Origin: Mytilus edulis
Taxonomy: Eukaryota
Length of the DNA: 64,000 nucleotides
NCBI RefSeq assembly: GCF_963676685.1
Contig: NC_092353.1
Coordinates: 20,398,001-20,462,000, forward strand
Reading direction: 5' to 3'
Part shown: positions 1 through 63,688 of the stretch, piece after piece
Layout of the letters: every line of letters begins with the position of its first letter
Numbering within the stretch: position 1 is the stretch's first letter
Notes under the pieces: generated by a model
Databases searched by the model: none
What the model saw: the letters and a program-made list of their open reading frames with translations, nothing else
What the model was told of the DNA's origin: nothing
Program-made: the position numbers and the translations under genes

Positions 1-3000
1 ATGGATACCCCATATCCTTTGTTTTGTCTATTAGGAATGTGCTTGTGTCATGGATGGATAGCCCATATCCTTTGTATTGTCTATTAGGAATGTACTTGTG
101 TCATGGATGGATAGCCCATATCATTTGTTTTGTCTATTAGGAATGTACTTGTGACATGGATGGATAGACCATATCCTTTGTTTTGTCTATTAGGAATGTG
201 TCATGGATGGATACCCCATATCATTTGTATTGTCTATTAGGAATGTACTTGTGACATGGATGGATACCCCATATCATTTGTATTGTCTATTAGGAATGTA
301 CTTGTGTCATGGATGGATATCCCATATCATTTGTATTGTCTATTAGGAATGTACTTGTGACATGGATGGATAGACCATATCCTTTGTATTGTCTATTAGG
401 AATGTACTTGTGACATGGATGGATACCCCATATCATTTGTTTTGTCTATTAGGAATGTACTTGTGACATGGATGGATACCCCATATCATTTGTATTGTCT
501 ATTAGGAATGTACTTGTGACATGGATGGATAGACCATATCCTTTGTATTGTCTATTAGGAATGTACTTGTGTCATGGATGGATAGCCCATATCCTTTGTT
601 TTGTCTATTAGGAATGTACTTGTGACATGGATGGATACCCCATATCCTTTGTTTTGTCTATTAGGAATGTACTTGTGACATGGATGGATACCCCATATCA
701 TTTGTTTTGTCTATTAGAAATGTACTTGTGACATGGATGGATAGACCATATCCTTTGTTTTGTCTATTAGGAATGTGTCATGGATGGATACCCCATATCA
801 TTTGTATTGTCTATTAGGAATGTACTTGTGACATGGATGGATACCCCATATCATTTGTATTGTCTATTAGGAATGTACTTGTGTCATGGATGGATACCCC
901 ATATCATTTGTATTGTCTATTAGGAATGTACTTGTGACATGGATGGATACCCCATATCCTTTGTTTTGTCTATTAGGAATGTACTTGTGTCATGGATGGA
1001 TACCCCATATCATTTGTATTGTCTATTAGGAATGTACTTGTGACATGGATAGATACCCCATATCCTTTGTTTTGTCTATTAGGAATGTACTTGTGTCATG
1101 GATGGATACCCCATATCATTTGTATTGTCTATTAGGAATGTACTTGTGTCATGGATGGATAGCCCATATCGTTTGTATTGTCTATTAGGAATGTACTTGT
1201 GTCATGTATGGATATCCCATATCCTTTGTATTGTCTATTAGGAATGTACTTGTGTCATGGATGGATATCCCATATCATTTGTATTGTCTATTAGGAATGT
1301 GCTTGTGACATGGATGGATACCCCATATCCTTTGTATTGTCTATTAGGAATGTGCTTGTGTCATGGATGGATTTCCATATCCTTTGTTTTGTCTATTAGG
1401 AATGTGCTTGTGACATGGATGGATATCCCATATCCTTTGTTTTGTCTATTAGGAATGTACTTGTGACATGGATGGATACCCCATATCATTCGTATTGTCT
1501 ATTAGGAATGTACTTGTGACATGGATGGATACCCCATATCCTTTGTTTTGTCTATTAGGAATGTGTCATGGATGGATGTCCCATATCCTTTGTTTTGTCT
1601 ATTAGGAATGTACTTGTGTCATGGATGGATACCCCATATCCTTTGTTTTGTCTATTAGGAATGTGTCATGGATGGATATCCCATATCCTTTGTTTTGTCT
1701 ATTAGGAATGTGCTTGTGTCATGGATGGATACCCCATATCCTTTGTTTTGTCTATTAGGAATGTGCTTGTGACATGGATGGATACCCCATATCATTTGTT
1801 TTGTCTATTAGGAATGTGCTTGTGACATGGATGGATACCCCATATCCTTTGTTTTGTCTATTAGGAATGTGCTTGTGACATGGATGGATACCCCATATCC
1901 TTTGTATTGTCAATTAGGAATGTACTTGTGACATGGATGGATACCCCATATCCTTTGTTTTGTCTTTTAGGAATGTGCTTGTGTCATGGATGGATACCCC
2001 ATATTATTTGTTTTGTCTATTAGGAATGTACTTGTGACATGGATGGATACCCCATATCATTTGTTTTGTCTATTAGGAATGTGCTTGTGTCATGGATGGA
2101 TAGCCCATATCATTTGTTTTGTCTATTAGGAATGTACTTGTGACATGGATGGATACCCCATATCATTTGTATTGTCTATTAGGAATGTACTTGTGACATG
2201 GATGGATACCCCATATCATTCGTATTGTCTATTAGGAATGTGCTTGTGTCATGGATGGATACCCCATATCCTTTGTATTGTCTATTAGGAATGTACTTGT
2301 GTCATGGATGGATAGCCCATATCATTTGTATTGTCTATTAGGAATGTACTTGTGACATGGATGGATATCCCATATCCTTTGTTTTGTCTATTAGGAATGT
2401 GCTTGTGACATGGATGGATACCCCATATCCTTTGTTTTGTCTATTAGGAATGTGTCATGGATGGATATCCCATATCCTTTGTTTTGTCTATTAGGAATGT
2501 ACTTGTGTCATGGATGGATAGCCCATATCCTTTGTATTGTCTATTAGGAATGTACTTGTGTCATGGATGGATAGCCCATATCCTTTGTTTTGTCTATTAG
2601 GAATGTACTTGTGACATGGATGGATACCCCATATCCTTTGTATTGTCTATTAGGAATGTACTTGTGTCATGGATGGATAGCCCATATCCTTTGTATTGTC
2701 TATTAGGAATGTACTTGTGACATGGATGGATACCCCATATCATTTGTATTGTCTATTAGGAATGTACTTGTGTCATGGATGGATAGCCCATATCATTTGT
2801 ATTGTCTATTAGGAATGTACTTGTGACATGGATGGATAGCCCATATCATTTGTATTGTCTATTAGGAATGTACTTGTGTCATGGATAGATAGCCCATATC
2901 ATTTGTATTGTCTATTAGGAATGTACTTGTGACATGGATGGATACCCCATATCCTTTGTTTTGTCTATTAGGAATGTGCTTGTGACATGGATGGATACCC

Positions 3001-4378
3001 CATATCATTTGTTTTGTCTATTAGGAATGTGCTTGTGACATGGATGGATAGCCCATATCATTTGTATTGTCTATTAGGAATGTACTTGTGTCATGGATAG
3101 ATACCCCATATCCTTTGTTTTGTCTATTAGGAATGTACTTGTGTCATGGATGGATAGCCCATATCCTTTGTATTGTCTATTAGGAATGTACTTGTGACAT
3201 GGATGGATACCCCATATCATTTGTTTTGTCTATTAGGAATGTACTTGTGACATGGATGGATACCCCATATCCTTTGTTTTGTCTATTAGGAATGTACTTG
3301 TGACATGGATGGATACCCCATATCCTTTGTTTTGTCTATTAGGAATGTACTTGTGTCATGGATGGATAGCCCATATCCTTTGTATTGTCTATTAGGAATG
3401 TACTTGTGTCATGGATGGATACCCCATATCCTTTGTTTTGTCTATTAGGAATGTGCTTGTGACATGGATGGATACCCCATATCCTTTGTATTGTCTATTA
3501 GGAATGTACTTGTGACATGGATGGATACCCCATATCCTTTGTTTTGTCTTTTAGGAATGTGCTTGTGTCATGGATGGATACCCCATATCATTTGTTTTGT
3601 CTATTAGGAATGTACTTGTGACATGGATGGATACCCCATATCATTTGTTTTGTCTATTAGGAATGTGCTTGTGTCATGGATGGATAGCCCATATCATTTG
3701 TTTTGTCTATTAGGAATGTACTTGTGACATGGATGGATAGACCATATCCTTTGTTTTGTCTATTAGGAATGTGTCATGGATGGATACCCCATATCATTTG
3801 TATTGTCTATTAGGAATGTACTAGTGACATGGATGGATATCCCATATCATTTGTATTGTCTATTAGGAATGTACTTGTGACATGGATGGATAGACCATAT
3901 CCTTTGTATTGTCTATTAGGAATGTGCTTGTGTCATGGATGGATAGCCCATATCCTTTGTTTTGTCTATTAGGAATGTGCTTGTGTCATGGATGGATATC
4001 CCATATCCTTTGTATTGTCTATTAGGAATGTACTTGTGACATGGATGGATACCCCATATCATTTGTATTGTCTATTAGGAATGTACTTGTGTCATGGATG
4101 GATAGCCCATATCATTTGTTTTGTCTATTAGGAATGTACTTGTGTCATGGATGGATAGCCCATATCCTTTGTATTGTCTATTAGGAATGTACTTGTGTCA
4201 TGGATGGATACCCCATATCCTTTGTATTGTCTATTAGGAATGTACTTGTGTCATGGATGGATAGCCCATATCCTTTGTATTGTCTATTAGGAATGTACTT
4301 GTGTCATGGATGGATACCCCATATCCTTTGTATTGTCTATTAGGAATGTACTTGTGACATGGATGGATACCCCATATT
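1..4378. repeat. 53-bp minisatellite array (~83 copies, runs off the left edge) inside a PARP4 intron
   Basis: Unit ATGGATACCCCATATCCTTTGTTTTGTCTATTAGGAATGTACTTGTGACATGG recurs at 1, 54, 107 and so on. Occasional 46-bp variants lack 7 bp. No unique spacers. Confidence 0.98.
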
Positions 4379-4605
4379 ATTTTTTAATACCAATCAAAAT
4401 TCATTAAAAATCTTAAACATATTGATAACTTGTATTCTACATTTGTTGTTGCAAAGAAGCTACACAAGTAAAAGTATTACAAGGTCATGGTGGACCCCAT
4501 TTATCAAGAATCTCTTGAAATTTTACATCTTTTCTTGGTGAAAAAAAAACCCCAATGTACTGGTTATATTAAACCATTAGAGGCTTTTGTTATTTGTCTG
4601 TGTAC

Positions 4606-4789: not shown

Positions 4790-7700
4790 CTGTAATATTA
4801 AAATAAATCATATTATGTTTATCATTCTCTGACTTGAATCTTACATTATTTAATTACTTTATTTATTTGTATATCTTGTTGACTTTCATATACACGAAAG
4901 ATAAAGAGCTTACCTACTAACATGTCCAGAACTTTTCAAATTTGAATAACCTTCAAATAACATTGAATCTAATCCCAAGATAGAAGGAAAATTTTCAGTT
5001 ACACTTTATTCTCATTTCAAGAATTAAAATAAAGAAAAATTGATTGCCACGCAAATATCTAACATTGAAAACAAAATATGACAAAAGTCCATTTTGTTTT
5101 ACAGAATTTTATTTGAGTTAATTTGACCTCTACATACCTAGCAGAGCTGGCAAAGTAGACACCATTTCCAAGCATTCCTGCATCTGTTCTGGTTCCACCA
5201 AAATCATCAACAATTATTTTAGGCAAAAGTAAACCCCTAAAAAAGAAAGATTAATACTTGTCACAAAATTGTGGTATAAAGCAGTTACATCAATTTTGTC
5301 ATATCATGGTTTTTTTTATATGTATAATCTACAAATGTAATTTTTAATTTAAATATTTTTTCTATTCCAGAAAAAAAAAAGGATTGGCTATATCAGAAAA
5401 TAATAGATTGGTTGTTGGAAGGCACTATATGTATTAACACAGACATATTTTTAAGTTTTTTTTTTTTTTTCTAAATTATTATGTGCGGGAGATCTTTATA
5501 ACATTGCCTTTCAATTCTTTGTTTCAATTTTCTTAGATATTTTGGCTTTGCAACAGGATGTTTACAACTGAAGTTGTAAAGATTCATATGATACTACTGT
5601 TGAAAGGCCGAATCTGAAAATCATGCAAATGAACCTGGTTATTTAGTTATCAATCATATTGTGTAAAATGTTAAGAGATTTGGTGATATGGTTCATAAAA
5701 ATCCCTTAGAAACTAATGAATTATAATATTTTAATAATGAAAGGCAAATCTCTTCAATAGTACATTCAGATTCTACTATGGTCCTATTTATTTGGCCATT
5801 TGTGATTAAATTAAAACTTTTTACCTAGATAATATTCCAACAAAGTTCTGAACTTTTGATGCATGAAACAACAACTTCTGAGGTCTCAAATTTTTTCTAA
5901 AATTGTCTTCTTCTACTTGTCGATGAACACAGAAAACATTACTAATGCTGATCTCAGGACTTCCTCTGAAATAAAAAAGGGGAAGTAAATCAAAATCATT
6001 ATCATATTTCACTTATTTGATGATCAATTACTGATAAGTTGTAAATCCTGAACTGACCAGAAATAAACTTAATAGCTATACTACCCCTAAAAAACAAGCA
6101 AAATACAACATATTGCCATTAATTTCTCAATGGCAGCTGATTCAAAGAATACAAATTGAAAAAAAATATCCATTGAGAAATGACTGGATGTAGAACATTT
6201 TTTTCAAACTTTTTCAGATGGGTGTCTTTCTGACACTATATAAATACATAAATCTTGTGGTACCATTAAAGCTTAACTACTTATATACAAGTAATAAAAT
6301 TATTGACTTTGATGTTTTCTCTTTAAGATTTTTATTAAATATTAACGTCCAAAAACACAATGACCAAAGAAAAAGACATCTAGAGGTGACTTTTAATCAG
6401 TATGATAATCTAGAAATTGATACAAACATAAATCTGTTATTTCTTGGTAATCTCCTGCAATCAGTTGTTGGAGGAAAACTAAGGATTCATTTTAATTGTT
6501 TTGAACCCATACATCATGATTTAATAAAGACCTAATTAATCAGGTTTTTGATTCTAAATATGTCCTAGAGATGACAATTACATATACTATAGAAGATTTG
6601 ATTTGATTTAATTTCTTGTGTTTAAATTCCACTTTTTAGCACCACTTTATGGCTATTTGGTAGCAGTTAGGAAATCTGACAATTCTAGTCAATTAAGATT
6701 TGAGTCAAGTGCACCTGCAGGAGCTACTAAGACCACTTGGCCTCTCCATCATAGAAGACAACAACCAGGTTTTATTGCACCCAAATTTCATTGATTACCA
6801 TTGATATATAAAAATACATTAAAATGTTATTGAATCATCATCAACAACAAAATAATGTATGATATCAAAAATACAAACTGTTTGAGAGACTGTATAATGT
6901 GTTCCTTGATCAGTTTATATTCTGTATCTGTAATCTGTAAACCATCAAGTCTACATCGTAATGCTTTATACTTGGCCTCGGTACTACTTCTGGTCGACCA
7001 GTTTGTAGACTCACTCACAGCTACCATATCTTTAATCATCTGAAATACATAATCTTAAAATACATACATCATGTCAAAAACATACACTAAAAATTTAAAG
7101 TCAGGAAACTAGTGATTTACCTCCTTTTGTAATAGGGAAATGATAAAAAGAAACATCTAATTTTGTAATAGAGCATTTCTTTACTCAGACTTACAAAATC
7201 TTCCTTCAAAATGTGTTTTTATTTTGTCCTGACATTTCTATATACAAGAACAATAAAGGTCACTAATTGTAATGGAAAATGAGTGAAGAAAGTTTTTCTG
7301 TATGAATATTAACTAACATGACTCTTTTCTGTGGAAGTGTTTGGTTTTATGTGACATAATTTTATATCATATATATTTTTACTTACCAGTCAAGGAATAT
7401 ACATAAGGATTATCTCCCTTACAACGTTCTCATAACTCGCAACACCTGGATGATTTCAAACATCTATCTAACATTGATCATCCGGGTGAATGCCTCCTCA
7501 GTTTATCTTTCGGCGGCAACAAAATAAGACGTTCTCACTTTGAGACTTTCTATTATAGTCTCGTCGTTGCAATTTTTATTTATGTACGTTTAATATTATC
7601 GTCCGCTCATATTGGACGATGGCTGAAGAATATAGACACTCACTGACTGACGCAAATGCTGATTCAGATAGTGCAGGTGAAACGCCAACGGGTGATTTTC

Positions 7701-10700
7701 TCGTGAAAAAGATGGCGAGGACAACAAAAGACGCTTCTTCAAAGAAAAAGAAACGTGTGTCAAAGACGGCTGAACTTGAGAATAAGTTAAACAGTATGGA
7801 AGACAGGTTTGATAAGAAAATGGATATGTTATTTGCTGTTATGAACAAGTCATGTGCTACTATAGGTAGTTCGACTGTTGCACAGGTTTCTCAATCTGGT
7901 GGTTTAGCCACGCAGAGAGAACAAAGTTCGGATAACGTCCCAAGTACAGGGGAGCGTAGACCGGTAATTTCTTTGAATGCAAATCTTGATGAGGACTTGG
8001 GAAGTCCTAGAATCATCAGAAATATTGATTTTGACAATAGGTCAGAAATTTCTCTTCATATAGACAGTCGTGAAAAGGCTGATTTACTTGGTTTATGTTC
8101 ATCAGAGGATGAATATTCTCGTGGCCTCAGTAGTCCTGTTTATTCTCAGGCTGGCAATAAATCTAGAAATGTTGAAAGATTTAGTCAATATCTACAAACT
8201 CAACCTACTATTAGTAACAATGTTGAAAGTCAGTCAAATCAGAGACTAACAAGTAACATTGATAATAATAACAATAAAACTGTAGACAAGCAGTCAGATA
8301 ATTTAAATTTATTGTCTAAACTTTTCAAGGAAGATATTCCTTCAGAATCTTCTGATAATTCTGGTGGCTTGATCATTGATGAGGCACAGGTTAGAATTCT
8401 AGAACGTTCCTGGAGAACAAAAAATCCAGAGAAACTTACAGCTTATAAAGATGAATACCGTAGTTGTTTTCCGGTTAATGATAAATCTAAAAGCTTTTTG
8501 CAAGTACCCAGTTTGGATGATTTATTAGAACCAATGATAAGAACTGTTCATGGTACAAATAGTGTTAAGTCATGGGACAAACATAAGCAGTTGGTTACTC
8601 AACCTTTAAAACAGATAGAGAATCTAGCCTATCAAGGGCAGGTGGCTTCACGTATGGGTATTATATCAGTGTTGTATATGCAACAAACATTAGGAACCTT
8701 ATTAGAGAGGGTTGAAAATGAAAATGTTAGTGATGAAACTTGTCAAATGGTGAAGGACTTGTTTGCAATTTCGACAAAGTCTCTTGATCAGGTAGGACGC
8801 ACAGGTGCGTTTAACCATATGATACGCAGGAAGGCTGCAGCTACTGAGTCTGGTTTAAATAACTTGAAAGATATACAGGCTAAAGTTTTGTATTTACCTC
8901 TTTCGAATGAAGGTGTATTTGGTAAAGGTTTGGAAGACAAACTTGAGAAACGTAAAGAACAACGTGAGCAACTAGACGATCTGTTACCAGAGTATAAAAA
9001 CAATAATAAGAGAAAGTTTGAATCTACTCAGGTGCGTCAAGATTGGCAAAATAAAGCTCCTAGATATAGTTCTAACAATAGTTCTACTCATGTTAATTAT
9101 AACAATGCTAATTCAGCTGATAAACGTTCAGGTTTTAGTTATAATAAATCTTCTGTGAGATCTGCTCCTAGGAAGTTCCAGAAAGACAATAAAGCTGATG
9201 ACTTTGGGAAAAAAGATAAAGAAAAGAAAGCAGGTGGCAACTGGAATTCTTTTCGGATCCCAAAGAAAAACAGTAGCTGACTCAGAGTTAAAGGTAATAA
9301 TTTATCAGAATCAGGCCGAGATACCAGTTGGGGGTCGTCTAAGATTTTTTCGAGACAATTGGGAAAAAATAACAGACGATCAATGGGTCTTGTCAGTAAT
9401 AGCAGAGGGTTACAAACTAGAGTTTCTAGAAATGCCATTTGGGACAGGCATACGGAAAACCTCTGTGTCTTTAAAAGACTCGGATATTTTAATCCAAGAA
9501 ATAAATACTCTTATAGAAAAAGATGCTATAGAACCTGTTCGCCAGCAAGATGCAGCAACAGGTTTCTACAGTACGTTTTTTCTAGTCCCCAAAAAGAACG
9601 GGACAATGAGACCAGTAATAAATCTCAGACCCCTCAACAGGTATCTCAAGAAAATACATTTCAAAATGGACACTCTCACAAAAGTATTAAACTTAGTAAA
9701 AATAGGAGACTGGGCCATTTCTCTGGATCTAAGCGATGCTTATTTACACATCCCAATTTTTCAGAAGCATCCCAAGTTTCTCAGATTTTCGGTTCAGAAC
9801 CGGTGTTATCAGTGGAAAGTTCTTTGTTTCGGACCAACTTCGGCTCCGAGAGTCTTTACAAAAATGGTTTCCGTAGTAGCGGCTTTTTTGAGAACTCAAA
9901 ATGTAAGACTAGTAGTATATCTAGACGATTGGCTAGTAGTCAATCAAAGCAAGAATCAATTATATCAAGATCGAAAGAAATGTCTCGATCTCCTAAATTC
10001 ACTAGGTTTTCTCATCAACAGAGAAAAATCAAGTCTAGTGCCAACTCAAAACTTGATATACTTAGGGGGGCAGTTTCATTTGGACAAGGGACTTGTTTGC
10101 CCAACTCAGGAAAGAATAGACAAATTGAATATGGCAATACTAATTCTTTCATCAGGGAATGCAGTGTCAGCATTTCACTTCCTACAATTACTAGGCATAA
10201 TGGCATCTTGCATAGAGTTAATTCCGAATGCACGCTTGTTCATGAGACCGGTTCAACTACATCTCCTCTCATTTTGGAGACCAAGTTGTCAGGATCTTTC
10301 CATAAAGATCCCAGTTACACCACATCTGAAATCACATCTCAGTTGGTGGAAAGATTCAGCAAACACGCTGAGAGGCCAATATTTTCAACTGGCTCAAACC
10401 TCTGTAACCATAACGACAGATGCTTCGAAAACCGGGTATGGGGGTTTTATGAACAATCAAATTTTTCAAGGGGAATGGTCAGAAATGCAGAGCAAGAAAC
10501 ATATAAATTCCCTAGAATTGGAAGCAGTGTTTTTAACGCTGAAACACTTCCTAAATCAGTTGAAAGGTCAATATGTTCTGATAAGATCGGACAATACCAC
10601 AGTGGTCCAATATATAAACAAACAAGGGGGGACGAAATCGCCCACTCTTTGCTACCAAACATGGGATTTATGGAATCTTGCAATTCAAAACAATATTCGA

Positions 10701-13700
10701 ATGAAGGCTGCTCATATAACAGGAAAATTGAACATTTTAGCAGACCAACTCAGTCGAACCAAAATTCAACATACAGAATGGTCTCTGAACAAACTTGTGG
10801 TTCAGAATCTATTTCAAATTTGGGGAACTCCTCTCATAGATTTATTTGCCTCAATAGACAATCGTCAGACAGAAATTTTTTGTTCATGGATCCCACATCA
10901 GAAAGCCTTAGCTCTGGATGCTTTGACAATTTCATGGGAGAGAATGTACGCCTATGCTTATCCCCCAATTTGTCTGATCCCAAAAGTCTTGCAATATATG
11001 AGGCAGTACCAGTGTCAGATTTTGTTGATAGCTCCCCAATGGCCACGGAGACATTGGTACCCAGAGCTGCTACAATTATTGATAGCAGTCCCCATCAGGA
11101 TACCAGTAATTCCGGAATTGTTATGTCAACCGAAAACTCGGATTTATCATCCCAATCCACAAGTTTTCAAGCTGACTGCATGGCTTCTATCAACGAACGG
11201 TTTACAACAGAAGGCTTTTCTAAAGGGGTTAGAGAGTTACTCTCCGCCTCATGGCGAAAAGGTACTCAAAAAGATTACTGCTCAAAATTCAGAAGGTTCA
11301 ATAGCTGGTGTAGTACAAGGAAAATTGATCCCTATAAAATATCTTTAAGTCAGATAGCTGATTTTTTATCATATTTATTTGATAGTGGTTTGCAATACAG
11401 AACAATTGCAGGGTATCGCTCAATGTTGTCCACGGTATTACCTCCAATAGATAATTTCCAAATTGGACAACATCCTAAAATAATTCGATTGATTAAAGGT
11501 GTTTTCAATACAAGACCTCCAGTTGCAAAACTATTACCTGAATGGGATTTGCACGTAGTATTAAGAATGTTAGAAAATAGTCCTTTTGACAATGTTGAAC
11601 AAATGACTTTAAAAGATTTGACTTTAAAAACTGTATTCTTAACTGCCATTACTACTTTCAGGAGATGTAGCGATCTGCAGGCACTAAGAACGGATGAAGG
11701 CTCCATGAGAATACAGACTAAAGGAATTACGTTTATAAGACATGGCCTAGCCAAACAGGATAGGGAGAAACATTTTGGAGCAAAAATTTTCGTACCTACA
11801 TACACTGAGAATACCTCTTTAGATCCACGGAAAAGTCTGTTACAATATTTAGATAAAACAAAACCGTTGCGTAAAAAATTACAACAGGACCAAAGAGGAA
11901 AATTATTTTTAGCTTTATGTGAACCTCACAAACCAGTTACCTCTCAGACAATTTCACATTGGATTGTTCAAATTATTAAACAGGCTTATTCTGATTTTGA
12001 ATATCCAGGGAAAGGGAAAATACATGCGCATTCTACAAGAGCTATTGGCCCAACTTGGGCATTCTTTAAAGGAGCATCTATCAATTCGATCTTAGAATCT
12101 GCAGATTGGAGTTCAGAATCTACCTTTAGTAGATTTTATTTGCGTGAATTAGATGTAAATGTGTTACAGAAAATAGACTAAGTTGATATTTTCGGCGAGT
12201 TGCACAGTATGTTTTTGTTATTCATTAAAATGTTAGTGGTGGAAGCATTTTAAATGGTGGAAGTATTTTATATGTTTTTAAATATGAACATGAACTACAT
12301 TTCAACTTATGATGAAGTTTGAAATGACAAAGAATCACAGAGAAGTTTTGCTGTTATTAGATGTGTACATGTGTTGTAGAAAGTCTCTTCAGGTGAGATA
12401 ATTTATTTATAACACTCCTCCTAAGGTTCAGACTGCTTTGAAATCAGTAGTAATCCTTATGTATATTCCTTGACTGGTAAGTAAAAATATATATGATATA
12501 AAATTGAGAATTTGTTATCAAGTTCTAATTTTATGAATTATTTTTACTTACCAGTCAAGGCTCCCACCACCTCCCCAGTTATAAATAATTTTCGGTAAAA
12601 GGGAATATTTTGTTCCCGCCGATAAACTGAGGAGGCATTCACCCGGATGATCAATGTTAGATAGATGTTTGAAATCATCCAGGTGTTGCGAGTTATGAGA
12701 ACGTTGTAAGGGAGATAATCCTTATGTATATTCCTTGACTGGTAAGTAAAAATAATTCATAAAATTAGAACTTGATAACAAATTCTCAATTTGGAGTCAA
12801 TAATGGGTTTGCTAGGCATATAGTTTATGTCAGTGCGTTCAGCCAAAGGATGAATATTCTAATGGTGATAAATTCTATGTGACTGCTTTGTAAGTGTTTT
12901 TAAAGGATAAAATTTAATATATTTCTATAGGCAGGTTTTGATTATGTTCAAAGATTCAAGGATCCACTTAACCCATTAAAAGTTGCATGAGAAGTCAGAA
13001 AAGAGTTAAATAGTATTTCTGGTAATTGAAATGGATCAAACATATTACCTGACATATATCTTGTTTCTTTGATAGCCATGCTCTCCTTTGTGATTTGACT
13101 GGTTGAGTTTTGTTTTTGTGTGGTAATGTTTCATTGAATTCTTTAAACAACTGTTCTACTTTTAAGTCATCCTTGCAATCCTTTATCTTCAACAGAATAG
13201 CTTCTGCTTTCTCTATCTATAATATTTGGCAAAAGAAAAATAGTGTATTACATAGTTTTATCAGATCAACATATGCATAATTGCAACGATGTCACAAGCA
13301 GGGTTTGAACTAAAATCACATTCTCATTTTCTGATAAACACAAATATTATTTTTTGTCTGGAGCGTTGCCATTTTTTTCAACCAAATTAAATTGCAAAAA
13401 AATATTATGCATCTTCACTTCAGGAAAAAAACAAGGACAACTGAAGACAAAATTATAAATAAATATAAACAAATACATTTATAAACTTCTAAATAACTGT
13501 GTTTTTCAACATATGGTTTTTAAATTCAAGCATTAATGCATTTAAAACATTTTGTTATTGTTTGAAATATATAGCCAAAATCGTTGGTGATCAATACTTA
13601 TTGCATAACACTGTATAAATCATTCCAGTTTGTAATCTAGATTATAAATAAGTTTGCATACCTGTTCTAACTTGATGCTCTGTAAAGGTACGCTTATCAC

Positions 13701-28100: not shown

Positions 28101-31100
28101 TCGGTTTATCATTAGTATTCGGAGAGACCGAAGCATGACCAACGGTGGTCTTTAGCAGGGTTGTTGCTGCTGTGTAGGTAGTTTCGTCACATGTTGGTTC
28201 GCGAGGCTGAGAAACAGTAGTTGTACCTTCTGTGTTTGTCAAATGTGTATCGGTAATATTACCAATGGTCCTAGTGGTTATACCAGCAGTATTAAATATC
28301 GAGGTAAGTTAGATGGTTTTTGCAGCTGTTATACTAGTTTCGCAAGTTGTTTTGTCTGTAATCGTAGTATCATCTGTTGTAAATCTGATCGTCTGAATGT
28401 CAATTATGAATGTAGACATTTTTGTTGCTGTTTCCGAGCTAGCTATTAATTCTGTCGTTACCGTCGATTTATTATTAAATAATTATCAGTGATAGTACCA
28501 ATGGTCCTTGGGGTTATGCCAACAGTATTAGATATCGGGGTAAGTTGGATGGGTTTTTTTCAGCTTTTACAGTAGCTTCGCTAGTTGTTGTGTATGTCAT
28601 CGTAGTATCATCTGTTGTAAAGCCGGTCGTTGGAGTGTCATATATGAATGTAGACGGTTTTGTTTGAGTTTCCGAGCTAGCTATGATTTCCGATGGTTTA
28701 TCATTAGTAATCGGAGAGACAGAAGCTTGACCAGCGGTGGTCTTTACCAGGGTTGTTACTGCTGTGTAAGTTGTTTCGTCAGATATTGGTCCATGAGTCA
28801 CAGAAACAGTAGCTGTACCTTTAGTGGTTGTTACATGTTTCTCGCTGATAGAACCAATGGTCCTAGTGGTTAAGCCAACAATATTAGATATCGAGGTTAG
28901 TTGGATGGTTTTTGAGGTTGTGTCAGTAGGGTCACTAGTTGTTTTGTCTGTCATCGTAGTAGCATATGTTGTAAAGCCGATCGTTTGAGTGTCATATATG
29001 AATGTAGATGTTTGTGTTGTCGTTTTCGAGCTTGCTATGGTTTCCGTCGTTTCCGTCGGTTTATCATTAGTAATTAGAGAGACCGAAGCTTGATCAGCAG
29101 TGGTCTTTAGCAGGGTTGTTGCTGCTGTGTAAGTTGTTTCGTCAGATATTGGTCCATGAATCTCAGAAACAGTAGTTGTACCTTGTGTGCTTGTTAAATA
29201 ATTATCGGTGATAGTACCAATGTTCCTTGTAATTATGCCGACAGTATTAGATATCGAGGTAAGTTGGATGGTTTTGGCGGGTGTGTCAGTAGCGTCACTA
29301 GTTGTTTTTTTCTATCATCGTAGTATCATCTGTTTTAAAGCCGATCGTTTGAGTGTTAGATATGGATGTAGACGTTTTTGTTGGCGTTTTCGAGCTAGAT
29401 ATTGTTTTCGTCGTTTCCGTCGGTTTATCATTAGTAATCGGAGAGACCGAAGCTTGATCAGCGGTGGTCTTTAGCAGAGTTGTTGCTGCTGTGTGAGTTG
29501 ATTCGTCAGATATTGGTCCATGAATCTCAGAAACAGAAGTTGTACCTTGTGTGTTTGTTAAATAATTATCGGTGATACTAGTAGTACCAATGTTCCTTGT
29601 GGTTGTGCCAACAGTATTAGACATCGAGGTAAGTTGGATGGTTTTGGCGGGTGTGTCAGTAGCGTTACTAGTTGTTTTTTCTATCATCGTAGTATCATCT
29701 GTTTTAAAGCCGATCGTTTGAGTGTCAGATATGGATGTAGACGTTTTTGTTGGCGTTTTCGAGCTAGCTATGGTTTCCGTCGTTTCCGTCGGTTTATTAA
29801 TAGTAATCGGAGATACCGAAGCTTGATCAGCGGTGGTCTTTAGCAGGGTTATTGCTGCTGTGTAAGTTGTTTCGTCAGATATCGGTCCATGAATCTCAGA
29901 AACAGAAGTTGTACCTTGTGTGTTTGTTAAATAATTATCGGTGATACTAGTAGTACCAATGTTCCTTGTGGTTGTGCCAACAGTATTAGACATCGATGTA
30001 AGTTGGATGGTTTTGGCGGGTGTGTCAGTAGCGTCACTAGTTGTTTTTTCTATCATCGTAGTATCATCTGTTTTAAAGCCGATCGTTTGAGTGTCAGATA
30101 TGGATGTAGACGTTTTTGTTGGCGTTTTCGAGCTAGCTATGGTTTCCGTCGTTTCCGTCGGTTTATTAATAGTAATTGGAGATACCGAAGCTTGATCAGC
30201 GGTGGTCTTTAGCAGAGTTGTTGCTGCTGTGTGAGTTGATTCGTCAGATATTGGTCCATGAATCTCAGAAACAGAAGTTGTACCTTGTGTGTTTGTTAAA
30301 TAATTATCGGTGATACTAGTAGTACCAATGTTCCTTGTGGTTGTGCCAACAGTATTAGACATCGAGGTAAGTTGGATGGTTTTGGCGGGTGTGTCAGTAG
30401 CGTCACTAGTTGTTTTTTCTATCATCGTAATATCATCTGTTTTAAAGCCGATCGTTTGAGTGTCAGATATGGATGTAGACGTTTTTGTTGGCGTTTTCGA
30501 GCTAGCTATGGTTTCCGTCGTTTCCGTCGGTTTATTAATAGTAATCGGAGATACCGAAGCTTGATCAGCGGTGGTCTTTAGCAGGGTTATTGCTGCTGTG
30601 TAAGTTGTTTCGTCAGATATCGGTCCATGAATCTCAGAAACAGAAGTTGTACCTTGTGTGTTTGTTAAATAATTATCGGTGATACTAGTAGTACCAATGT
30701 TCCTTGTGGTTGTGCCAACAGTATTAGACATCGATGTAAGTTGGATGGTTTTGGCGGGTGTGTCAGTAGCGTCACTAGTTGTTTTTTCTATCATCGTAGT
30801 ATCATCTGTTTTAAAGCCGATCGTTTTAGTGTCAGATATGGATGTAGACGTTTTTGTTGGCGTTTTCGAGCTAGCTATGGTTTCCGTCGTTTCCGTCGGT
30901 TTATTAATAGTAATCGGAGATACCGAAGCTTGATCAGCGGTGGTCTTTAGCAGGGTTGTTGCTGCTGTGTAAGTTGTTTCGTCAGATATTGGTTCATGAA
31001 TCTCAGAAACAGAAGTTGTACCTTGTGTGTTTGTTAAATAATTATCGGTGATACTAGTAGTACCAATGTTCCTTGTGGTTGTGCCAACAGTATTAGACAT

Positions 31101-31500
31101 CGATGTAAGTTGGATCGTTTTGGCGGGTGTGTCAGTAGCGTCACTAGTTGTTTTTTTCTATCATCGTAATATCATCTGTTTTAAAGCCTATCGTTTGAGT
31201 GTCAGATATGGATGTAGACGTTTTTGTTGGCGTTTTCGAGCTAGCTATGGTTTCCGTCGTTTCCGTCAGTTTATTAATAGTAATCGGAGATATCGAAGCT
31301 TGATCAGCGGTGGTCTTTAGCAGGGTTATTGCTGCTGTGTAAGTTGTTTCGTCAGATATTGGTCCATGAATCTCAGAAACAGAAGTTGTACCTTGTGTGT
31401 TTGTTAAATAATTATCGGTGATACTAGTAGTACCAATGTTCCTTGTGGTTGTGCCAACAGTATTAGACATCGAGGTAAGTTTGATGGTTTGTGCAGCTGT
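28101..31500 (-). repeat. 369-bp (123-aa) coding tandem repeat of the mucin
   Basis: Identical landmarks at 29634, 30003, 30372 and 30741. Copies are diverged on both sides. Confidence 0.95.
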
Positions 31501-34500
31501 TACAGTAGCTTCACTAGTTGTTGTGTCTGTCATCGGAGTATCATCTGTTGTAAAGCCAATCGTCCGAGTGTCAAATATGGACGTAGGCGTTATTGAGCTA
31601 GATATGGTTTCTGTCGTTTGACTTGGTTTATCATTATTAATCGGAGAGACCGAAGTTTGATCAGCTGTGGTCTTTAGCAGGGTTGCTGCTGCTGTAAAAA
31701 ATGTTTCGTCAGATGTTGGTTCATGAGTCTCAGAAAGAGTAGTTGTATCTTCTGTGTTTGTCAAATGTTTATCGGTAATACTACCAACAATCTTAGTGGT
31801 AATGCCAGCAGTATTAGACATCGAAGTAAGTTGAATGGTATTTAGGTCTGTGTCAATAGCTTCACTAGTTGTTGTATCTGTCGCCGTAGTATCTTCTGTT
31901 GCAAAGCCGATCGTTTGAGTGTCAGATATGGACGTAGACGTTTTTGTTGGCGTTTCGTGTCTAGCTGAGGGTTCCATCGTTTTTGTCCATTTGTAATTAG
32001 TAATCGAAGAGACCGTAGATTGATCAGTGGTTGTCTCTAGCAAGTTTGTGGCTGCTGTGTGAGTGGTTTCGTCAGGTGGTGGTCCACGAGTCTCAGAGAC
32101 AAAAGATGTACTTTCTGTGTTTGTGAACTGTATTTCTGCGGTTGTACTAATAGTCTTGGTAGAAGTGCCAATATTAAGAGACATATGTTTAATAGTTGTA
32201 ACAGTATTTTCATCAGTTGTTGCGTCTGTCAAAGTCGTATCATTTATGCTAGTCCCAATAGTCTCAGTGTCAGAAATGGATGCCGGTGTTTTCACTGTAT
32301 TTACTGTGCTCGCTATAGTATCCAACGTTTTCGTCGTGTTGTCATTGGTAATCGGAGAATTCGAAACTTGATCAGAAGTTATTTCTAGCAAGGTTATTGC
32401 TGCTGTGTGAGTGTTTTTGTCAAATGTTGGTCCTTGAGTCGCAGAGACAGTTGTACCTTTAACCTTTGTCAACGGAGTAGTTATAGTGTTTGTGGTAGTG
32501 TCAACAGCATAAGATATAGAGGTAAGTTCGATTGGTTTTGCGGATGTGACAATAGCTTCCCTTATAGTTGTGGCTGTCATAGCTGTTTCATCGGTCGTAG
32601 TGCCAATCGTCAGACTGGAAGAAATGAATGCTGGAGTTTTAATTGGCATTGCTGTGCTAGCTATAGTCTCCGTCATTTCCCTCAGTTTATTATTGGTAGT
32701 CGGAGAGACCAGGGCTTGTTCGATGGTTGTCTCTAGCAAGGTTGTTGCTGCTGTGTGAGTTGTTGCGTCGGATGCTAGTTCGTAAGTCTCAGAGACAGTA
32801 GTTGTACCTTCGGTGTTTATCAATGGGGTTTCTTCGGTAGTACCAATAGTATTTGATATAGAGGAAAGTTTGATGGTTTTTACAGCTGTTACAGAAACTT
32901 CACGAATTGTTGTGTCTGTCATAGTCGTACCATCTGTTCTAGAGCCAATTGGCTGAGTGTTAGAAATGAATGCAGGTGTTTTCGTTTGGGTTTTTGAGCC
33001 AACCACAGTTTCTGTCGTCTCCGTTAGTTTTGTATAAGTAGGCGGAGAGTACGAAGCTTGCTGAGCGGTTGTTGTTACGGTGCGAGTTGTTTCGTCAGAT
33101 TTCGACCCATGAGTCTCAAAGAAAGTTGTCCCTTCGGTATTTATCAACGGCTGTTCGGCAGAAATACCAACAATGTGAGTGGTAGTGCCAACATTATACG
33201 ATATAGAAGTATGTTTGATGGTTTCTGCGGCTGTGACAGCATCTTCATCAGGTATTGCGTCTGTCACAGTGCTCCCATCTATTGTAAAGTCAGTTGTTTG
33301 ACTCTCAGAAATGGTTGCTGCTGTTTTTGTTGGCGTTGCTGAGTGAGTTATAGTGTTCGATATTTCCCTCGGTTCATCATAAGTAATCGGAGAACTCGAA
33401 GCTTGATCAGCGGTAGTCTCCATTAATGATATTGCTGCTGTGTGAGCCGTGTCGTCAAATGGTGATCCATGAGTCTCGGAAACAGTAGTTGTACCGTCGG
33501 TGTCTATCAACCGTTTTTCTGCGGTAGTACCAACAGTGGTAGTTGTAGTGCCAACAATATTTGATGAAGAAGTGGGTTCGATAGTTTTTGCGGCTGTGAC
33601 AGTAGTTTCATTAGTGGTTGTGTCTGTTGCCGTAGTATCATCTGTTGTAAAGCCGATCGCCATACTGTCAGATATGGATGTAGACGTTTGTGTTGGCGTT
33701 TCTGGTCTAGCTATGGTTTCCGTCGTTTCTGTCAATTTGTTATTAGTAATCTGAGAGACCGAAGATTGATCAGCGGTTGTCTCTAGCAAGTTTGCTGCAG
33801 CTCTGTGAGTGGTTTCGTCAGATGGTGATTTATGAGTCTTAGAGACAGTAAATGTACCTTCTGTGTTTGTCAATGGTGTGTCTGCAGTAGTACCAACAGT
33901 CTTAGTGGAAGTGACAGTATTAGAAGATAAAGAGGTAAGTTGGAAGGTTTCTGCGGCTGTAACAGTATCTCCATCAGTTATTGCGGCTGTACCAGTCGTA
34001 TCATTTGTTTTAGTACCTATAGTCTGAGTGTCAGAAATGAATGGCGGTGTACTCCCAGGATTTGTTGTGCTTGCTATTTTTTTCGTTTCATTAGTAATCG
34101 GAGAGTTCGAAGCTTGAGTGGTTGTTTTATATAACGTTGATGCTGATGTGCGAGTTACTTCGTCAGATGTTGACCCATGAGTTTCAAACACAGTTGTACT
34201 TTCGGCTTTTATCAACGGCTGTTGGGCAGAAGTACCAACAGTGTTAGTGGTAGTGCCACCAGTTGTCGATATAGAAGTAAGTTTTATGGTGTCTGCGGAT
34301 GTGACAGTACTAGTATCTTTATCAGTTATTGCGTCTGTAAAAGTACTACCATCTGTTGTAAAACCAATCGTTTGACTCTCAGAAATAAACGCCGGTGTTT
34401 TCGTTTGCGTTGCTGATCTAGCTATAGTGTCTGTCATTTCATTCTGTTCATCATAATTAATCGGAGAGCTCGAAGCTTTAGCAGCAGTTGTCTCTAGCAA

Positions 34501-35405
34501 TGTTGAAGTTGCTGTGTAAGTTGCTTCGTCGAATTTTGGTCCTTGTGTCTCAGAGGCAGTTGTACCTTCTGTGTTTGTCAATTGAATGTAAGCGGTAGTG
34601 CCAGAAGTATTATATATAGATGTAAGTTCAATGGTTTTGGCAGTTGTGACAGGAGCTTCATCAATCGTTAAAAAGCCAATCGTATGACTCTCAGAAATGA
34701 ATGCTGACGTTTTTATTGGGGTTACTGAGCTAACTATAGTGTTTGTAGTTTCCATCAGTCTAATATCAGTAATTAGAGAGACTGAAGCTTGCTCAGCTGT
34801 TGTGTCTAGCAATGTTGTTGCTACTTGAAGATTTGCATCATCAGATGTTCGTCTATGAGTCTCAGATACAGTAGTACCTTCTGTGTTTGTCAATAGAATA
34901 TCATCAGTTTTGTCAATAGTCTTAGTGGTAATGCCAGTAGTACTATATTTAGAAATAAGTTCGATGTTTTCTGTCGCTGCGAAAGCATCTGTATCAATTG
35001 ATGTGTCTGTCACAGTCGTATCATCTGTATTAGAGGCAATCGTCTGAATGTCAGAGAGGGATGTAAATGTTTTTGTTGGCGCCATAGAGCTAGCTATAGT
35101 GTCTGCAAATCCCATTGGTTGGTCATGAGTAATTGGAGAGACCGATGATTTATAAGCGGTTGTCTCTAGCAAAGTTGTTGCTGTTGTAGGAGTTGTTTTG
35201 TAAGATTTTGATCCATGGGTCTCAGAGACAATTGTACTTTTGGTTGTTGTTAACGGTATCCCAGCAGTAGTATCAAACGTGACGATTTTAGCTGCTTCAG
35301 TTGTTGTGGCTATTCGAGAAATTGATGTTAGTGTTTTCATTTGCGTTGTTGAAGTACCAGTATTGAGAAATTTTGTATTGTCTTTTGTTGTAGTGGTAAT
35401 AGGTT
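28514..35405 (-). CDS. Mucin-like gene exon 3: giant Thr/Ser-rich (PTS) exon with two 1-nt frameshifts in the assembly
   Basis: Acceptor ttttcag|AA CCT at 35405 is phase 1, matching exon 2. ORFs 31144-35430, 29298-31100 and 28514-29299 join if the T7 runs at ~31151 and ~29305 are T6. Confidence 0.8.
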
Positions 35406-36837
35406 CTGAAAAAGAGTAAATACACTTCACTATATGCTTCTTTCTTTACTGGTTGATGCTCTAAGTAAAACCTTTTATAAATGGGCTGCAGGCAATAGGC
35501 ACGTTATCTGATTCTATATCATGTAAAAGATGAGAGCTGAGAAAATATTTTAATAGGGCCGAAACTATCTTACGTGACTTTGGAGAACATGTTTCTTGAT
35601 TTACATGAAGACAATTTGCATAATTATTCCTCTCAAGATTAATCAAACTAGATGTAAAAATCGGCATTGATCATACTTTTTGTTTGATTTTCAGCCAAAT
35701 CTGGATCGTACTCGACTGTTAAACGTTCAATTTCAATGTTTTGCGACGTGTTCTTTTACTTGTATATGAATATCTTTAGCCTATACTGTTAAGTCCATTT
35801 TCCCTGAAATTTTTTTGACATGCCTCGGTATTCATATACTAGTATCCAGTCATTTTTGTATTGTGCTATGAACATTTTTTGTACTCTTGTCTTCCATTTT
35901 GGCTGAAGTGATGTGCTATTGGCCATTTTATTGACAGAGTTGTTTGTTTTTATAGTAATTAAATTTTAACACAATAATGACTACTCAGTTTTTGACATTT
36001 CTATCATTTAAGTCTGTTTGTTTTGTTCACACATTGTTGTCAATATATTGCAATTTTAAGCGACTGCCATACAAAAGAGAGGATAAGCTAGCTAGAAAAC
36101 CATGTTCAATCCACCATTTTCTACATAAGAAAATGTATGTGCCAAGTCAAGAATATGACAGTTGTTATCTATTCCTTTAATGTGTTTGAGCTTTTGATTT
36201 TGCCATTTGATAAGCGACTTTCCGACTTGAATTTTCCTTGGAGTTCGGAATTTTTTGTCATATTATTTTTATGTTGCACGATGCTATTTTTACGAAGTGC
36301 TATAGGCAACAACGTTATTGGAATTTCGTCCTAATGCTTTTAGAGACACGGCGTTAATTTTTTTTGCTTTTTGCTATCAAACATACATTGTGCTTTATTT
36401 GTTGTTTTTGAATAAATCATGCCGTTGGTTTTTACTTTCGAATTGTTTCGTATTTTTTTTTTTATCCGATGGCATAGTATTTGTAGGTTAGACATTACTA
36501 TGTCAAACGTTATAATCATTAAATGACAATGATAAAACTTTATCAATAAATATTAAAATTACTAGTCGTTCCGTCATTAGACGCTTAATTATTTTGATAA
36601 ACGTATTGTTTTTATACTATAGCATCATTTCCTTTATAATCATTGTTTCTTAAAAAAAAATTACATTAAATTTTTTGTAAAGTATGAATAAATCAAGGCA
36701 AGAATTATTCCACCTAACCTTTCCCTCCCTTTTCTAAATTCATTACAACAAAAAATCTTTTTGATCATGCACAAAACAGAAATTTTACAAATGTTTTAGA
36801 TAATCAAAGATACCTTTATCTTAAATTGTGTACTTAC

Positions 36838-58820: not shown

Positions 58821-61662
58821 ACTCTTTTCTTATTACGTAAGTTATAACATGTTAAACGTACGATTTTGACTTTTGCCTTTCAGTGTCACTTATAAAACGA
58901 TATTATCAACTACATTAGAAGAATGCCAGCTACATAAAAAAAATAGATCTATTGTTATGTAGTTGATCGTTTTGTAGTGGACGTATACATACTTTGTGGC
59001 ATTTATTAATACCACGGATATTTCGACATCACACACACTGTAAATGCAAAATATTGGTTATAATGATATAGATATGAACGTGTTTGATGTTCCATTGTAA
59101 TCTTTATAGAAAATCCCGTTTCCAAGTGGACCAGTAAAAAAATACATTTTACCGCTACCTACTTAAATGCCAAAAAATATTGATTCCATTACAGAGTTAT
59201 CTATTTATGCACTCATTATTATCATGATATGTAGAGTTATGGTTTAGTATAGGCACTTTCTAGATACAAAATGAGTTTCATGGGTTATATTATAACAAAC
59301 AAATATCAAATACACTTAAAACATTAAGATAAATCTGAAACCAAAACCAGCAACTTAAGGTGTTGTTATATCAATCTACATTATATTTTCTATCTAAACA
59401 GAATTTTTAAAGATTTATGTAATTGTAAAGATGTTTATATTGATACGATATTTGGTATTTTTGGGGTTGGGTCATGCAGTTTGACGTCATGTTAGGGCTT
59501 TGAGCATAATTTTCAAGAAATCAACGGACCTATTCCTTGTTTGTCTATTGCAAATAGTAGAACTTACGTGGCACTAAGCAGGACACCAAAATTCAAGTAA
59601 TGACACATCCGTATTTTCCTCACAGGTCAGTTGTACAAGAATGTTGACAGATTTTGTAAAAGAACTTAAACTAAACGAAATATTTAGTAAATAAGCAAAT
59701 TGCACAGGTTTGCGATGAAAAAAAAACCCAATGTTATCCTATATATTAGATGCAAATTATTCAGTCATCTCGTTTTTTTGGGGGGCAAAATATCTATCAG
59801 GTCAAAATATTTTTTATTCAGATCCTAAATCCCTCCTCCTTTAAAAGAAACCCAAAAGAAGCAAATAAAATCAGATTGTCGTTCACAAACCCCGATCGTA
59901 TGAAAAACACTCTGTTATCATCAACCGATCAATCTGTTATCTTGATCGATAATGTCACCGTAATCATGTGTTTATTTATTCAAAGTATATCCTTAAGGGG
60001 TTACAATGTAGTATTCTATTTAGTAATAGTATTTGAAATATGAATGATTAATAATCATAAGTATCATCAGTTTAAACTTTGAATGACGTCAGTTAGATAT
60101 TTAAATCTTAATATCTCATTTAGATCAATCAATACACGTCCTATGGCTTGTTAAGATTTCACAGATTGTTCATGTGATAGCCTAGAAATGTATAAATGAA
60201 TTATTATTTTTTAATGATATTTGTCAATGTGAATGGCTAACGAAACAAAAAGTCTACGTGCGTTAAGTGAGACATTTAGCAAGCTATAAAACAAGGTTTA
60301 ATCCCACATTTTCTACCTAAGAAAATGCCTGAACAAAGTTAGGAAGTTGTCCATTCGTTTGATGTGTTTGAGCTTTTGATTTTGCCATTTGATTAGGGAC
60401 TTTCCGCTTTGAATTTCCCTCGGATTTCAGTATTTTTATAATTTTACTTTTTTCTATACATACTAACCCAGTAATGTGTATCACAACTTTGTAATATCAG
60501 ATCAGGAATGCAGAACAATTTGTCTTTTCTAAATAGATTATTTAAAGTTGTCTGTATTATTTTCTTGGCATGTAACCTAAAGTTCTCTTATAAATGTAGT
60601 TAAGCTTATAACTTATAGATAAAGATAGAATTTAAGGCAAAATTATCTTTTTTTTAGTGAATGCTTCATCCCTGTGAGATTCTTTGATGCTCACAATTAC
60701 TGAATAGAAGAACCTTTATAATTTTACTCTTCACAATAATATTATCTTCGATTTGAAACCACCACACCTAGACAACGACCTTCAAGTACTGTTTGTCCCC
60801 TCTGTCAACACAAGTTGTGAGTTAGATTTGTAAATAGTCTTTGCATCTTTTGCAACACTTCAAGAAGGGGGTGATTTTTACCCAGCCACACATCTCTAAA
60901 CAATTATTTTAGTATGTTACCAACCCTGCCCTACCCAGACCCTGTGAACATAGTGGAAAACGGATTTCTTTTTGTTCATATCCGCAGCTATTGGTGTCTG
61001 AGATTAAGAAGATCTTTTCTGTTTATAACTTATACAATTCATATAAAAAAAGAATTGAGTTGCCTCTCTTGACATGTTAGTGTTTATATTTTGAAGATCA
61101 TTCATTTTTTAATATTTCACATGTAAATGTCTGTCCATTAAGCCCCAGTCACACTGTCACGTTTCGGCTATCCCGTTTTGCTACGTTTTCAAAACGTAGC
61201 GAAACGGCAAAATCCGTAGTGAATCGTATCGATCCGTAGTTAAAACGGCTATATACGTAGTTATGCGTAGATTGATACGTGATCGGTGCCGTTTGTATTG
61301 GTCTGCACAATACAAACGTGACTAAAAATGAAAACGTAGTACTAACGTAGAAAAGCGCAGTAAAACGTAGAAGGAACGTAGAAATGCGTATTAGAAACGT
61401 ACCTGATACGTTCTAAAACGTATTTGATTATAATCACTAGGTGTTATTACGTTTAAGTACGTATCTGCCACGTTGCATTAGGTTTTTGTACGGTATATTA
61501 CGCTTCATGGTACGCATTAATAGGTTTCATCACGTTATTCTAGGCATTATTACGTATCGATGCGTATTACTACGCATGATTACCTTCTTCTACGCATAAT
61601 CAAACCACGTGTATCTATATTTCTCGCCATTTGCTAAAATAGTTTGTCAGTCTTACAGCAAG

Positions 61663-62941: not shown

Positions 62942-63688
62942 CGTTTTTTAACTGTCTTATCGTAGTATATTTGAATGATAAGTATATGATTTGTACTTTT
63001 GTTTATTTAACTTTGAATGTATCAAAAAATATTATCATGATACATGTAATTAAACTTTAAGAAATTCTTCTATTAATACCAGTTTTCTGGTCTTTTAAAA
63101 ACAATGGCACGCATGGGTCAGCATACTTAGGATAAATTGAAAATTTCATTATTATAACACTAAAACAACAAGACAAATCAAAATAAAAAAAAAACTTTGG
63201 GATCCCGCTAACATATTTAACCCCGCCGCATCATGTATGCATGTGCCTGTCCCAAGTCATAAGCCTGTAACTCAGTGGTTGTCGTTTGTTGCTGTGTTAC
63301 ATATTGTTTTTCGTTCATTTATTTGTACATTAATAAGGCCGTTAGTTTTTTTTTCGTTCGAATTGTTTTACATTTGTCATTTCGGGTCCTCTTATAGCTG
63401 ACTATGCGGTATGGACTTTGCTCAATGTTGAAGGCCATACGATGACCCATAGTTGTTAATTTCTGTGTCATTTGGTCTCTTGTGTAGAGTTGTCTCATTG
63501 GCAATTACACCACATCTTCTTTTTTTATATTAACCAACAAAATAATCACTCAAACAAAAAAACTTTTAATTTTACAGACAACTGTCATAATACATGAAAT
63601 AAACAAACTGTCTACATAATAGAGTCGTCTTTTAATGTCATTCATATAAAACTTTAAAACACCTGTACGGTTCCTGGTATGAATAAGT

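Follow-up and report, generated by a model that had tools for sequence, protein, structure and literature searches.

A candidate stop codon readthrough signal between gag and the tyrosine recombinase of a DIRS1-type retrotransposon in Mytilus edulis

The 64-kb stretch of Mytilus edulis DNA analyzed here (the window) carries a complete, intact DIRS1-type retrotransposon on its forward strand, between positions 7359 and 12791 (Table 1). Its ATT termini agree with those in the table of molluscan DIRS1-like elements of PMC3266345. The internal complementary region (ICR) has one half complementary to the left end (12451 to 12505) and one complementary to the right end (12501 to 12560), and the two halves overlap at the circle junction. 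Open reading frames (ORFs) were taken from stop to stop, and their domains were sought with Pfam. The reverse transcriptase (RT) in the +1 frame gave an RVT_1 match above the Pfam cut-off (E-value of 9.6e-22) and the RNase H a match below it, and the methyltransferase was called from DLFAS, YAYPP, and APQWP in the translation alone, which we take to be methyltransferase motifs. Phage_integrase (E-value of 1.1e-4) and SAM-like domains, both below the curated Pfam cut-offs, occupy residues 656 to 955 of the 966-amino-acid frame that encodes the tyrosine recombinase (YR). None of the three ORFs of the element has a Pfam match to rve (DDE integrase) or a protease. With inverted terminal repeats (ITRs), an ICR, an RT-RNase H-methyltransferase ORF, and a tyrosine recombinase unaccompanied by a DDE integrase or protease, the element is DIRS1-like. 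Its protein relatives carry the database label Mytilus.

ORF1 has no relevant Pfam match; its position and conservation fit gag. Taken from stop to stop it spans 7559 to 9280 (573 amino acids, first ATG at 7619), and the ORF that follows in the same frame runs from 9281 to 12181, with the YR domain at its end. These ORFs bear out an initial annotation of this DNA, which had described gag and YR as one frame split by a single TGA-C, with 9383 as the first ATG of the YR frame. The TGA at 9278 to 9280 (AGC TGA CTC AG) is the sole in-frame stop between 7619 and 12178, and TGACTC is kept in all six other copies found at 95 to 96% identity. The stop-to-stop RT ORF (9159 to 11348, 729 amino acids) has an in-frame ATG at 9198 and a conserved start (IPVGGRL) at 9327.

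Table 1. Features of the DIRS1-type element in the window
Feature	Position	Strand	Basis
Whole DIRS1-type element, ATT...ATT ends	7359..12791	+	Alignment with 6 other copies (95-96% identity) stops there; repeats
Left ITR, 134 nt, 100% complementary to 12621-12754	7374..7507	+	Repeat search
ORF1, gag-like, 553 aa; helical core, weakly LAP2alpha-like fold; basic low-complexity tail	7619..9280	+	ORF list, conservation, model
RT/RNase H/methyltransferase ORF, +1 frame	9159..11348	+	ORF list, Pfam
UUU-CGG in gag frame, candidate +1 shift site into RT frame	9251..9256	+	Motif count
gag stop TGA-CTC, predicted readthrough site	9278..9283	+	Sequence; cluster comparison
633-codon stop-free linker, gag/YR frame, overprinted on RT	9281..11179	+	Resampling, composition
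GT-AG intron, 2368 nt; removes RT and N-terminal half of YR	9294..11661	+	Contig joint in runs X1 and X15; frame check
Tyrosine recombinase, SAM-like and catalytic domains; RxSDL, HxxR, W, Y motifs read in translation	11180..12181	+	Pfam, translation
ICR	12451..12560	+	Repeat search
Right ITR and right extension	12621..12791	+	Repeat search

The layout was surveyed in the element's own genome, where 99 stretches came from genome search matches and one representative was picked by hand for each of 19 families, and in metagenome contigs scanned with our own profile, of which the best 80 of 471 confirmed matches were used. We kept 63 of these 80 loci and left out 8 without the RT N terminus, 4 with too little upstream DNA, and 5 without a suitable gag ORF (at least 150 codons, ending near RT); two of the last five still have an in-frame TGA-C, and three are frameshifted copies. 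With the 19 own-genome rows added, the set came to 82 elements, which form 70 clusters that share less than 75% RT identity with one another. In 58 clusters gag is in frame with YR across one stop, in 7 RT lies at -1, and in 5 gag is in frame with RT. Of the 19 own-genome families, 12 have the in-frame arrangement (10 with TGA-C, 1 with TGA-T, and 1 with TAG-G), and their RT identities span 37 to 70%. In the other seven gag stands in a different frame and RT at -1, and none of them ends in TGA; L121, one of these seven families, was too broken to class. Among 50 copies with gag and RT matches, TGAC was in phase in 43, off phase by our measure in 6, apparently owing to nearby indels, and missing in 1. 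On a tree built by a quick method (two rows were dropped for stops, and L138 forms a long branch), the window's clade comprises 17 clusters with a Shimodaira-Hasegawa-like approximate likelihood ratio (SH-aLRT) support of 99.

The frame that joins the gag stop to the recombinase is kept free of stops over its whole length. When RT amino acids were held fixed and synonymous codons were resampled, 50.3 ± 5.3 stops were expected over the 633 overlapped codons, against 0 seen (log10 P of about -32) and 75 in the third frame; the roughly 30 stops expected in the initial annotation were thus too low a figure. Over 28,849 linker codons from the 47 clusters with unbroken frames, there were 0 stops against 1692 expected. 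The frame stays open for at least 600 codons past the gag stop in 52 of the 58 in-frame clusters (5 stop sooner and 1 is limited by the contig end). The stretch from the gag stop to the first ATG is likewise free of stops in all 12 own-genome families (summed log10 P of -16.9; 39 stops in the third frame). Selection against stops acts from the first codon after the gag stop.

Could this frame be untranslated, with codon bias or inheritance keeping it open? The linker has no Pfam domain, and at 37% identity, against 62% for RT, it is poorly conserved; it diverges faster than RT. However, such an explanation is highly improbable in view of the 1692 missing stops, the 59 to 69 stops found in the same frame of families without a long overlap, and the openness of the YR frame across 35 to 62% GC. 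The linker is Ser-rich, its W, Y, and F stand at 0.31, 0.45, and 0.62 of expectation, and hydrophobic residues are below expectation in 47/47 clusters; the aromatic depletion is partly confounded because a single change can turn Trp, Tyr, and Cys codons into stops. This composition fits a translated, disordered tether.

The gag stop itself is of a biased type. The 58 in-frame clusters end gag with TGA-C (31), TAG-G (10), TAG-C (6), TGA-G (6), TGA-T (3), or TGA-A (2) and never with TAA, which makes up 24 of 89 RT and YR stops from the same elements (P = 1.6e-6). TGA-C accounts for only 3 of those 89 stops (P = 1e-12) and for 6% of third-frame stops, and none of the seven clusters with gag out of frame ends in TGA. 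The TGA/TAG bias recurs on several separate, deep branches of the RT tree. In the window's clade TGAC is invariant (17/17 clusters) and all spacer indels are multiples of 3. GAC makes up 40% of the Asp codons there, yet C follows TGA in every cluster; judged by this codon usage, the C is kept as a nucleotide and not for the Asp of the RT frame. The hexamers of 13 of the 58 clusters, in UGA-CUA and UAG-GGV contexts, equal viral type II or III readthrough hexamers in the list of PMC13517186. The comparison suggested in the initial annotation, whether the gag stop is conserved across DIRS1 elements as TGA-C in frame with YR, speaks for readthrough: the wider group shares a single in-frame stop (58/70) with a leaky-type bias and without a conserved ATG, and TGA-C is fixed in the window's clade.

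The element has a downstream in-frame ORF under selection from the stop onward and a conserved leaky-type stop with its context, two marks of programmed stop codon readthrough. We propose, at a probability of roughly 70%, that it makes YR by occasional readthrough of TGA-C on unspliced RNA, as a predicted Gag-linker-YR fusion of ~1520 amino acids. A few percent of the ribosomes on unspliced RNA would pass TGA-C, translate ~630 codons of a probably disordered, RT-overprinted tether, and then reach the recombinase. The tether would have no sequence role of its own; it would exist because ribosomes coming from gag have to get past RT to reach YR.

Several observations weigh against this proposal. 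The hexamer of the window, TGA-CTC, lies outside the classic viral set. The clusters are related and their counts are not independent, so the P values overstate independence. A weak stop also favors +1 shifting, and the bias could therefore serve RT and not YR. No conserved 3' RNA structure, a common though not obligatory companion of readthrough signals, was found after the stop (z of -1.59, versus -0.92 and -1.20 inside RT; P = 0.056), and the consensus fold after the gag stop was empty. In three own-genome families (L082, L083, and L088) gag is out of frame and the YR frame is still open over ~630 codons, and hence the overlap can be entered without readthrough. Five clusters put RT, not YR, in the gag frame, and three of them look intact. 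Tca2 of Candida is a copia-type long terminal repeat (LTR) element. It has the same in-frame UGA between gag and its enzyme ORF, with bypass inferred and no dual coding, but the passages of PMC2194720 on this junction report that alone it gave no readthrough in yeast reporters and that a minor promoter is present. Twelve clusters are arranged differently, and three of these keep the long overlap although no in-frame stop is present, so readthrough is not universal; for the group as a whole, though not for the window's clade, this goes part of the way toward what the initial annotation had named as contrary evidence (related intact elements with gag and YR in different frames). In L137, L161, and L178, which lie on three separate branches and look intact, gag and RT share a frame across one stop and YR stands at -1, a swapped layout.

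Translation of YR might instead begin at an AUG soon after the gag stop (9383 here) and give ~930 amino acids, whether through termination-reinitiation, leaky scanning, or an internal promoter; the shared frame would then be a by-product of RT lying in +1. A YR-frame ATG lies within 56 codons of the stop in 40 of the 58 clusters, gene callers annotate proteins of ~921 to 956 amino acids, and the Tca2 junction described in PMC2194720 does hold a promoter. However, a near ATG is expected by chance (0.59 to 0.92 per family), and the first one lies anywhere from 5 to 492 codons past the stop; 18 of the 58 clusters have none for 76 to 492 codons and are yet open. This lack of a conserved first ATG argues against reinitiation, as does the fact that stops are also kept out of the codons ahead of the ATG, and the avoidance of TAA would be left unexplained. 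We regard the explanation as decidedly improbable.

RT would be reached by another route. No RT-frame ATG precedes the conserved RT start in 19 of the 58 clusters, and RT therefore needs a shift or a splice. UUU-CGN is the +1 shift motif of influenza PA-X. It occurs in the RT-open gag tail of 27 of the 58 clusters and of 9 of the 10 own-genome families of the clade, and it makes up 28 of 38 Phe-Arg pairs in gag tails versus 18 of 43 in gag bodies. In the window UUU-CGG is ambiguous as a shift site because it also encodes the conserved FRIP peptide. The codon before the gag stop is AAA, CCC, TCC, TTT, or CTT in 26 of the 58 clusters versus 13%, with a set chosen after the data had been viewed. 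RT in the +1 frame would be reached separately from YR, most plausibly by a +1 shift at or just before the gag stop, although we would give this slightly less than even odds. That the +1 frame stays open for long within the gag tail was rejected as a signal because the same is seen where the overlap is absent.

The element is also spliced, at a donor 13 nt past the gag stop; neither this donor nor its intron was part of the initial annotation. Among four runs compared, the joint from 9294 to 11661 is present in contigs of X1 and X15, from two studies, at depths of 28.6 and 42.3 (one of the two runs is guessed to be RNA, and the other has no recorded kind; none of the runs listed as containing the element is recorded as RNA). 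In X15 the gag depth is 42 and the intron depth 5 to 13; just 8 reads match in the raw run X24. No DNA copy lacking the intron was found among 7 close genomic copies, and a deletion copy was therefore rejected as the source of the joint; L110 and L111 were rejected as intronless copies, with RT still present in both. Splicing takes out RT together with half of YR, and the joined frame does not match that of YR but reaches a stop 12 codons after the gag stop. The product is therefore a gag-only RNA and was rejected as a YR mRNA, the spliced or subgenomic message that RNA data had been suggested to reveal. A donor-like AG|GTRAG lies 4 to 13 nt past the stop in 14 of the 17 clade clusters and 33 to 39 nt before it in the other 3. 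Of the 10 own-genome families of the clade, 9 retain the acceptor AG, whereas only 2 of 6 metagenome members checked do. Most Gag would come from spliced RNA with its junction only 13 nt past the stop. Such a distance lies inside that usually held safe from nonsense-mediated decay.

That DIRS elements of this genome do splice raises another possibility, in which the YR frame is entered by splicing (with a donor in a leader or in gag, an acceptor close to the stop, and TGAC as the branch point) or by a frameshift back from RT, and the weak stop serves RT. Some entry of this kind is needed in the families that have the long overlap but an out-of-frame gag. In L097, L108, and L118, whose YR ORF is only ~400 codons and whose overlapped frame holds the 59 to 69 stops mentioned above, the donor lies in phase 0 of RT, and a strong acceptor in phase 0 of YR opens 392 to 397 codons; in L108 the first ATG falls inside the recombinase. 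The predicted intron of 1.66 to 1.70 kb joins a frameshifted Gag to a short, once start-less, recombinase, and YR is thus predicted to be made there by a -1 shift and splicing, again as a Gag fusion. In L074 and L105 a phase-matched donor before the stop and an acceptor at the RT start form possible introns of 76 and 88 nt, which may remove the gag stop and yield Gag-RT. For the window's clade, however, the single joint detected is out of frame for YR, in contigs that lose rare forms. Acceptors past the stop are pyrimidine-poor or absent in 10 clade families, by a pyrimidine filter that missed even the observed acceptor, and a strong donor lies between TGAC and any acceptor. Moreover, the codons between the stop and an acceptor would have no need to stay open. 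We therefore consider this route to YR unlikely.

Taken together with the predicted readthrough in the window's clade, the layouts suggest that a Gag-YR fusion is a common end reached by different routes. Tentatively, and with the odds somewhat against so broad a scheme, we picture the end of gag as a three-way switch: stopping would give Gag, mostly from spliced RNA, readthrough Gag-tether-recombinase, and a +1 shift Gag-RT, with other lineages wired differently (a -1 shift to RT, from which YR is reached by splicing or a further shift). The overlap would be a ~630-codon overprinted bypass whose sole job is to carry ribosomes across pol. The slippery heptamer pattern of -1 shifting is X XXY YYZ. 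It occurs near the opening of the RT frame in 5 of the 7 own-genome families with RT at -1.

Natural stop-less Gag-YR proteins of 1450 to 1520 amino acids were absent from the 120 matches listed of 150, and a search for longer gag matches, a weak test, returned one gene model of 1038 amino acids. Two apparent fusions, L091 (1418 amino acids) and L170 (1626 amino acids), are better read as single indel copies of out-of-frame families, and L158 was rejected as a broken copy. The Gag core models as a helical hairpin with a predicted local distance difference test score (pLDDT) of 73. Its best fold match, nonsignificant, is the dimerization domain of LAP2alpha (E-value of 0.069) and not a capsid. 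With no more than a weak LAP2alpha-like match for the Gag core, the idea that the fusion loads recombinase into particles is unsupported.

Two other splicing observations were made. At the TCTTTTCG run of the gag tail, a possible acceptor was rejected because its phases, read by eye, did not agree. A strong donor, CAG|GTGAGA, follows YR (12390 to 12398), and contigs of X1 and X15 exit the element at 12392 to 12395 into several foreign sequences, which suggests splicing into host flanks at different insertions; four loose-end motifs from 12392 were not found in the window or the fetched flanks.

Drosophila copia makes a gag-only RNA with an intron that runs from the end of gag into the enzyme region. 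Unlike in copia, the donor here lies just past the gag stop, and the enzyme ORFs lie in other frames or behind the stop. DIRS1-like elements with a long pol/YR overlap, such as Dictyostelium DIRS-1, share the ITRs, ICR, ATT termini, the order of gag, RT-RNase H-methyltransferase, and YR, and a YR ORF that overlaps pol with its catalytic part at the free 3' end (PMC3266345). In its relevant passages that paper describes the overlap without a translation route, reports no long overlap in its molluscan elements, and does not mention an in-frame gag, a stop bias, or a gag-only intron. For Dictyostelium DIRS-1, retrotransposition can be assayed with a tagged element (PMC7192593). Gammaretroviral gag-pol (type III) and alphaviral UGA-C (type II) signals, as described in PMC13517186, likewise place one in-frame UAG or UGA behind a structural or first ORF. 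Unlike in these viruses, the predicted product here is a recombinase behind ~630 overprinted codons and not Pol, no protease would release it, and a pseudoknot or stem-loop was not found.

The element class is known and the long RT/YR overlap has been published. The DIRS papers considered give, in the parts available, the ORF layout or overlap and no readthrough route (PMC3266345, PMC9210276, PMC6681497, PMC3783388, PMC2685390, PMC7192593, PMC5633606, PMC3950715, PMC8547959, and, for readthrough, PMC13517186). Judged from titles and term counts, with the primary Goodwin and Poulter papers outside the scope, no paper proposing readthrough for DIRS elements was found. The Goodwin and Poulter papers may contain a remark that gag and YR share a frame. 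An earlier mention of the readthrough idea in print is quite conceivable, although we lean toward its being new.

DIRS elements occur widely, and accounts of their long RT/recombinase overlap go back decades. If our proposal is true, their readthrough signals form a large natural family that spans animals and protists, they are retroelements that fuse their first protein to a recombinase instead of Pol, and their overlap is one of the longest stretches of dual coding that is maintained mainly to conduct ribosomes. Annotation would change as well: YR ORFs called from the first ATG would be artifacts, and gag expression in RNA sequencing would stem largely from spliced RNA.

The surroundings of the element were also recorded. 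A probable host exon without a Pfam match, presumably PARP-like from its appearance, lies on the reverse strand at 6902 to 7045, 300 nt to the left, and the element therefore likely sits antisense within a host intron. Run X21 contains reads of ~29 to 30 nt with adapters, the size of Piwi-interacting RNAs, on both strands across the element (at 7754 to 7783, 7904 to 7932, and 11177 to 11206). At least four 3'-end fragments of the element (74 to 84%), spaced ~33 to 35 kb apart, cluster at G000:C9:82.75-82.86 Mb. Elsewhere in the window, long skewed ORFs of 1433, 619, and 265 amino acids without a credible Pfam match lie at 28514 to 35445 (reverse strand) and about 1 to 4435, with a 53-nt tandem array near 4000 to 4435. 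A broken DDE_Tnp_4 transposase, which we take to be of the Harbinger type, occupies two frames at 61600 to 62951 on the forward strand.

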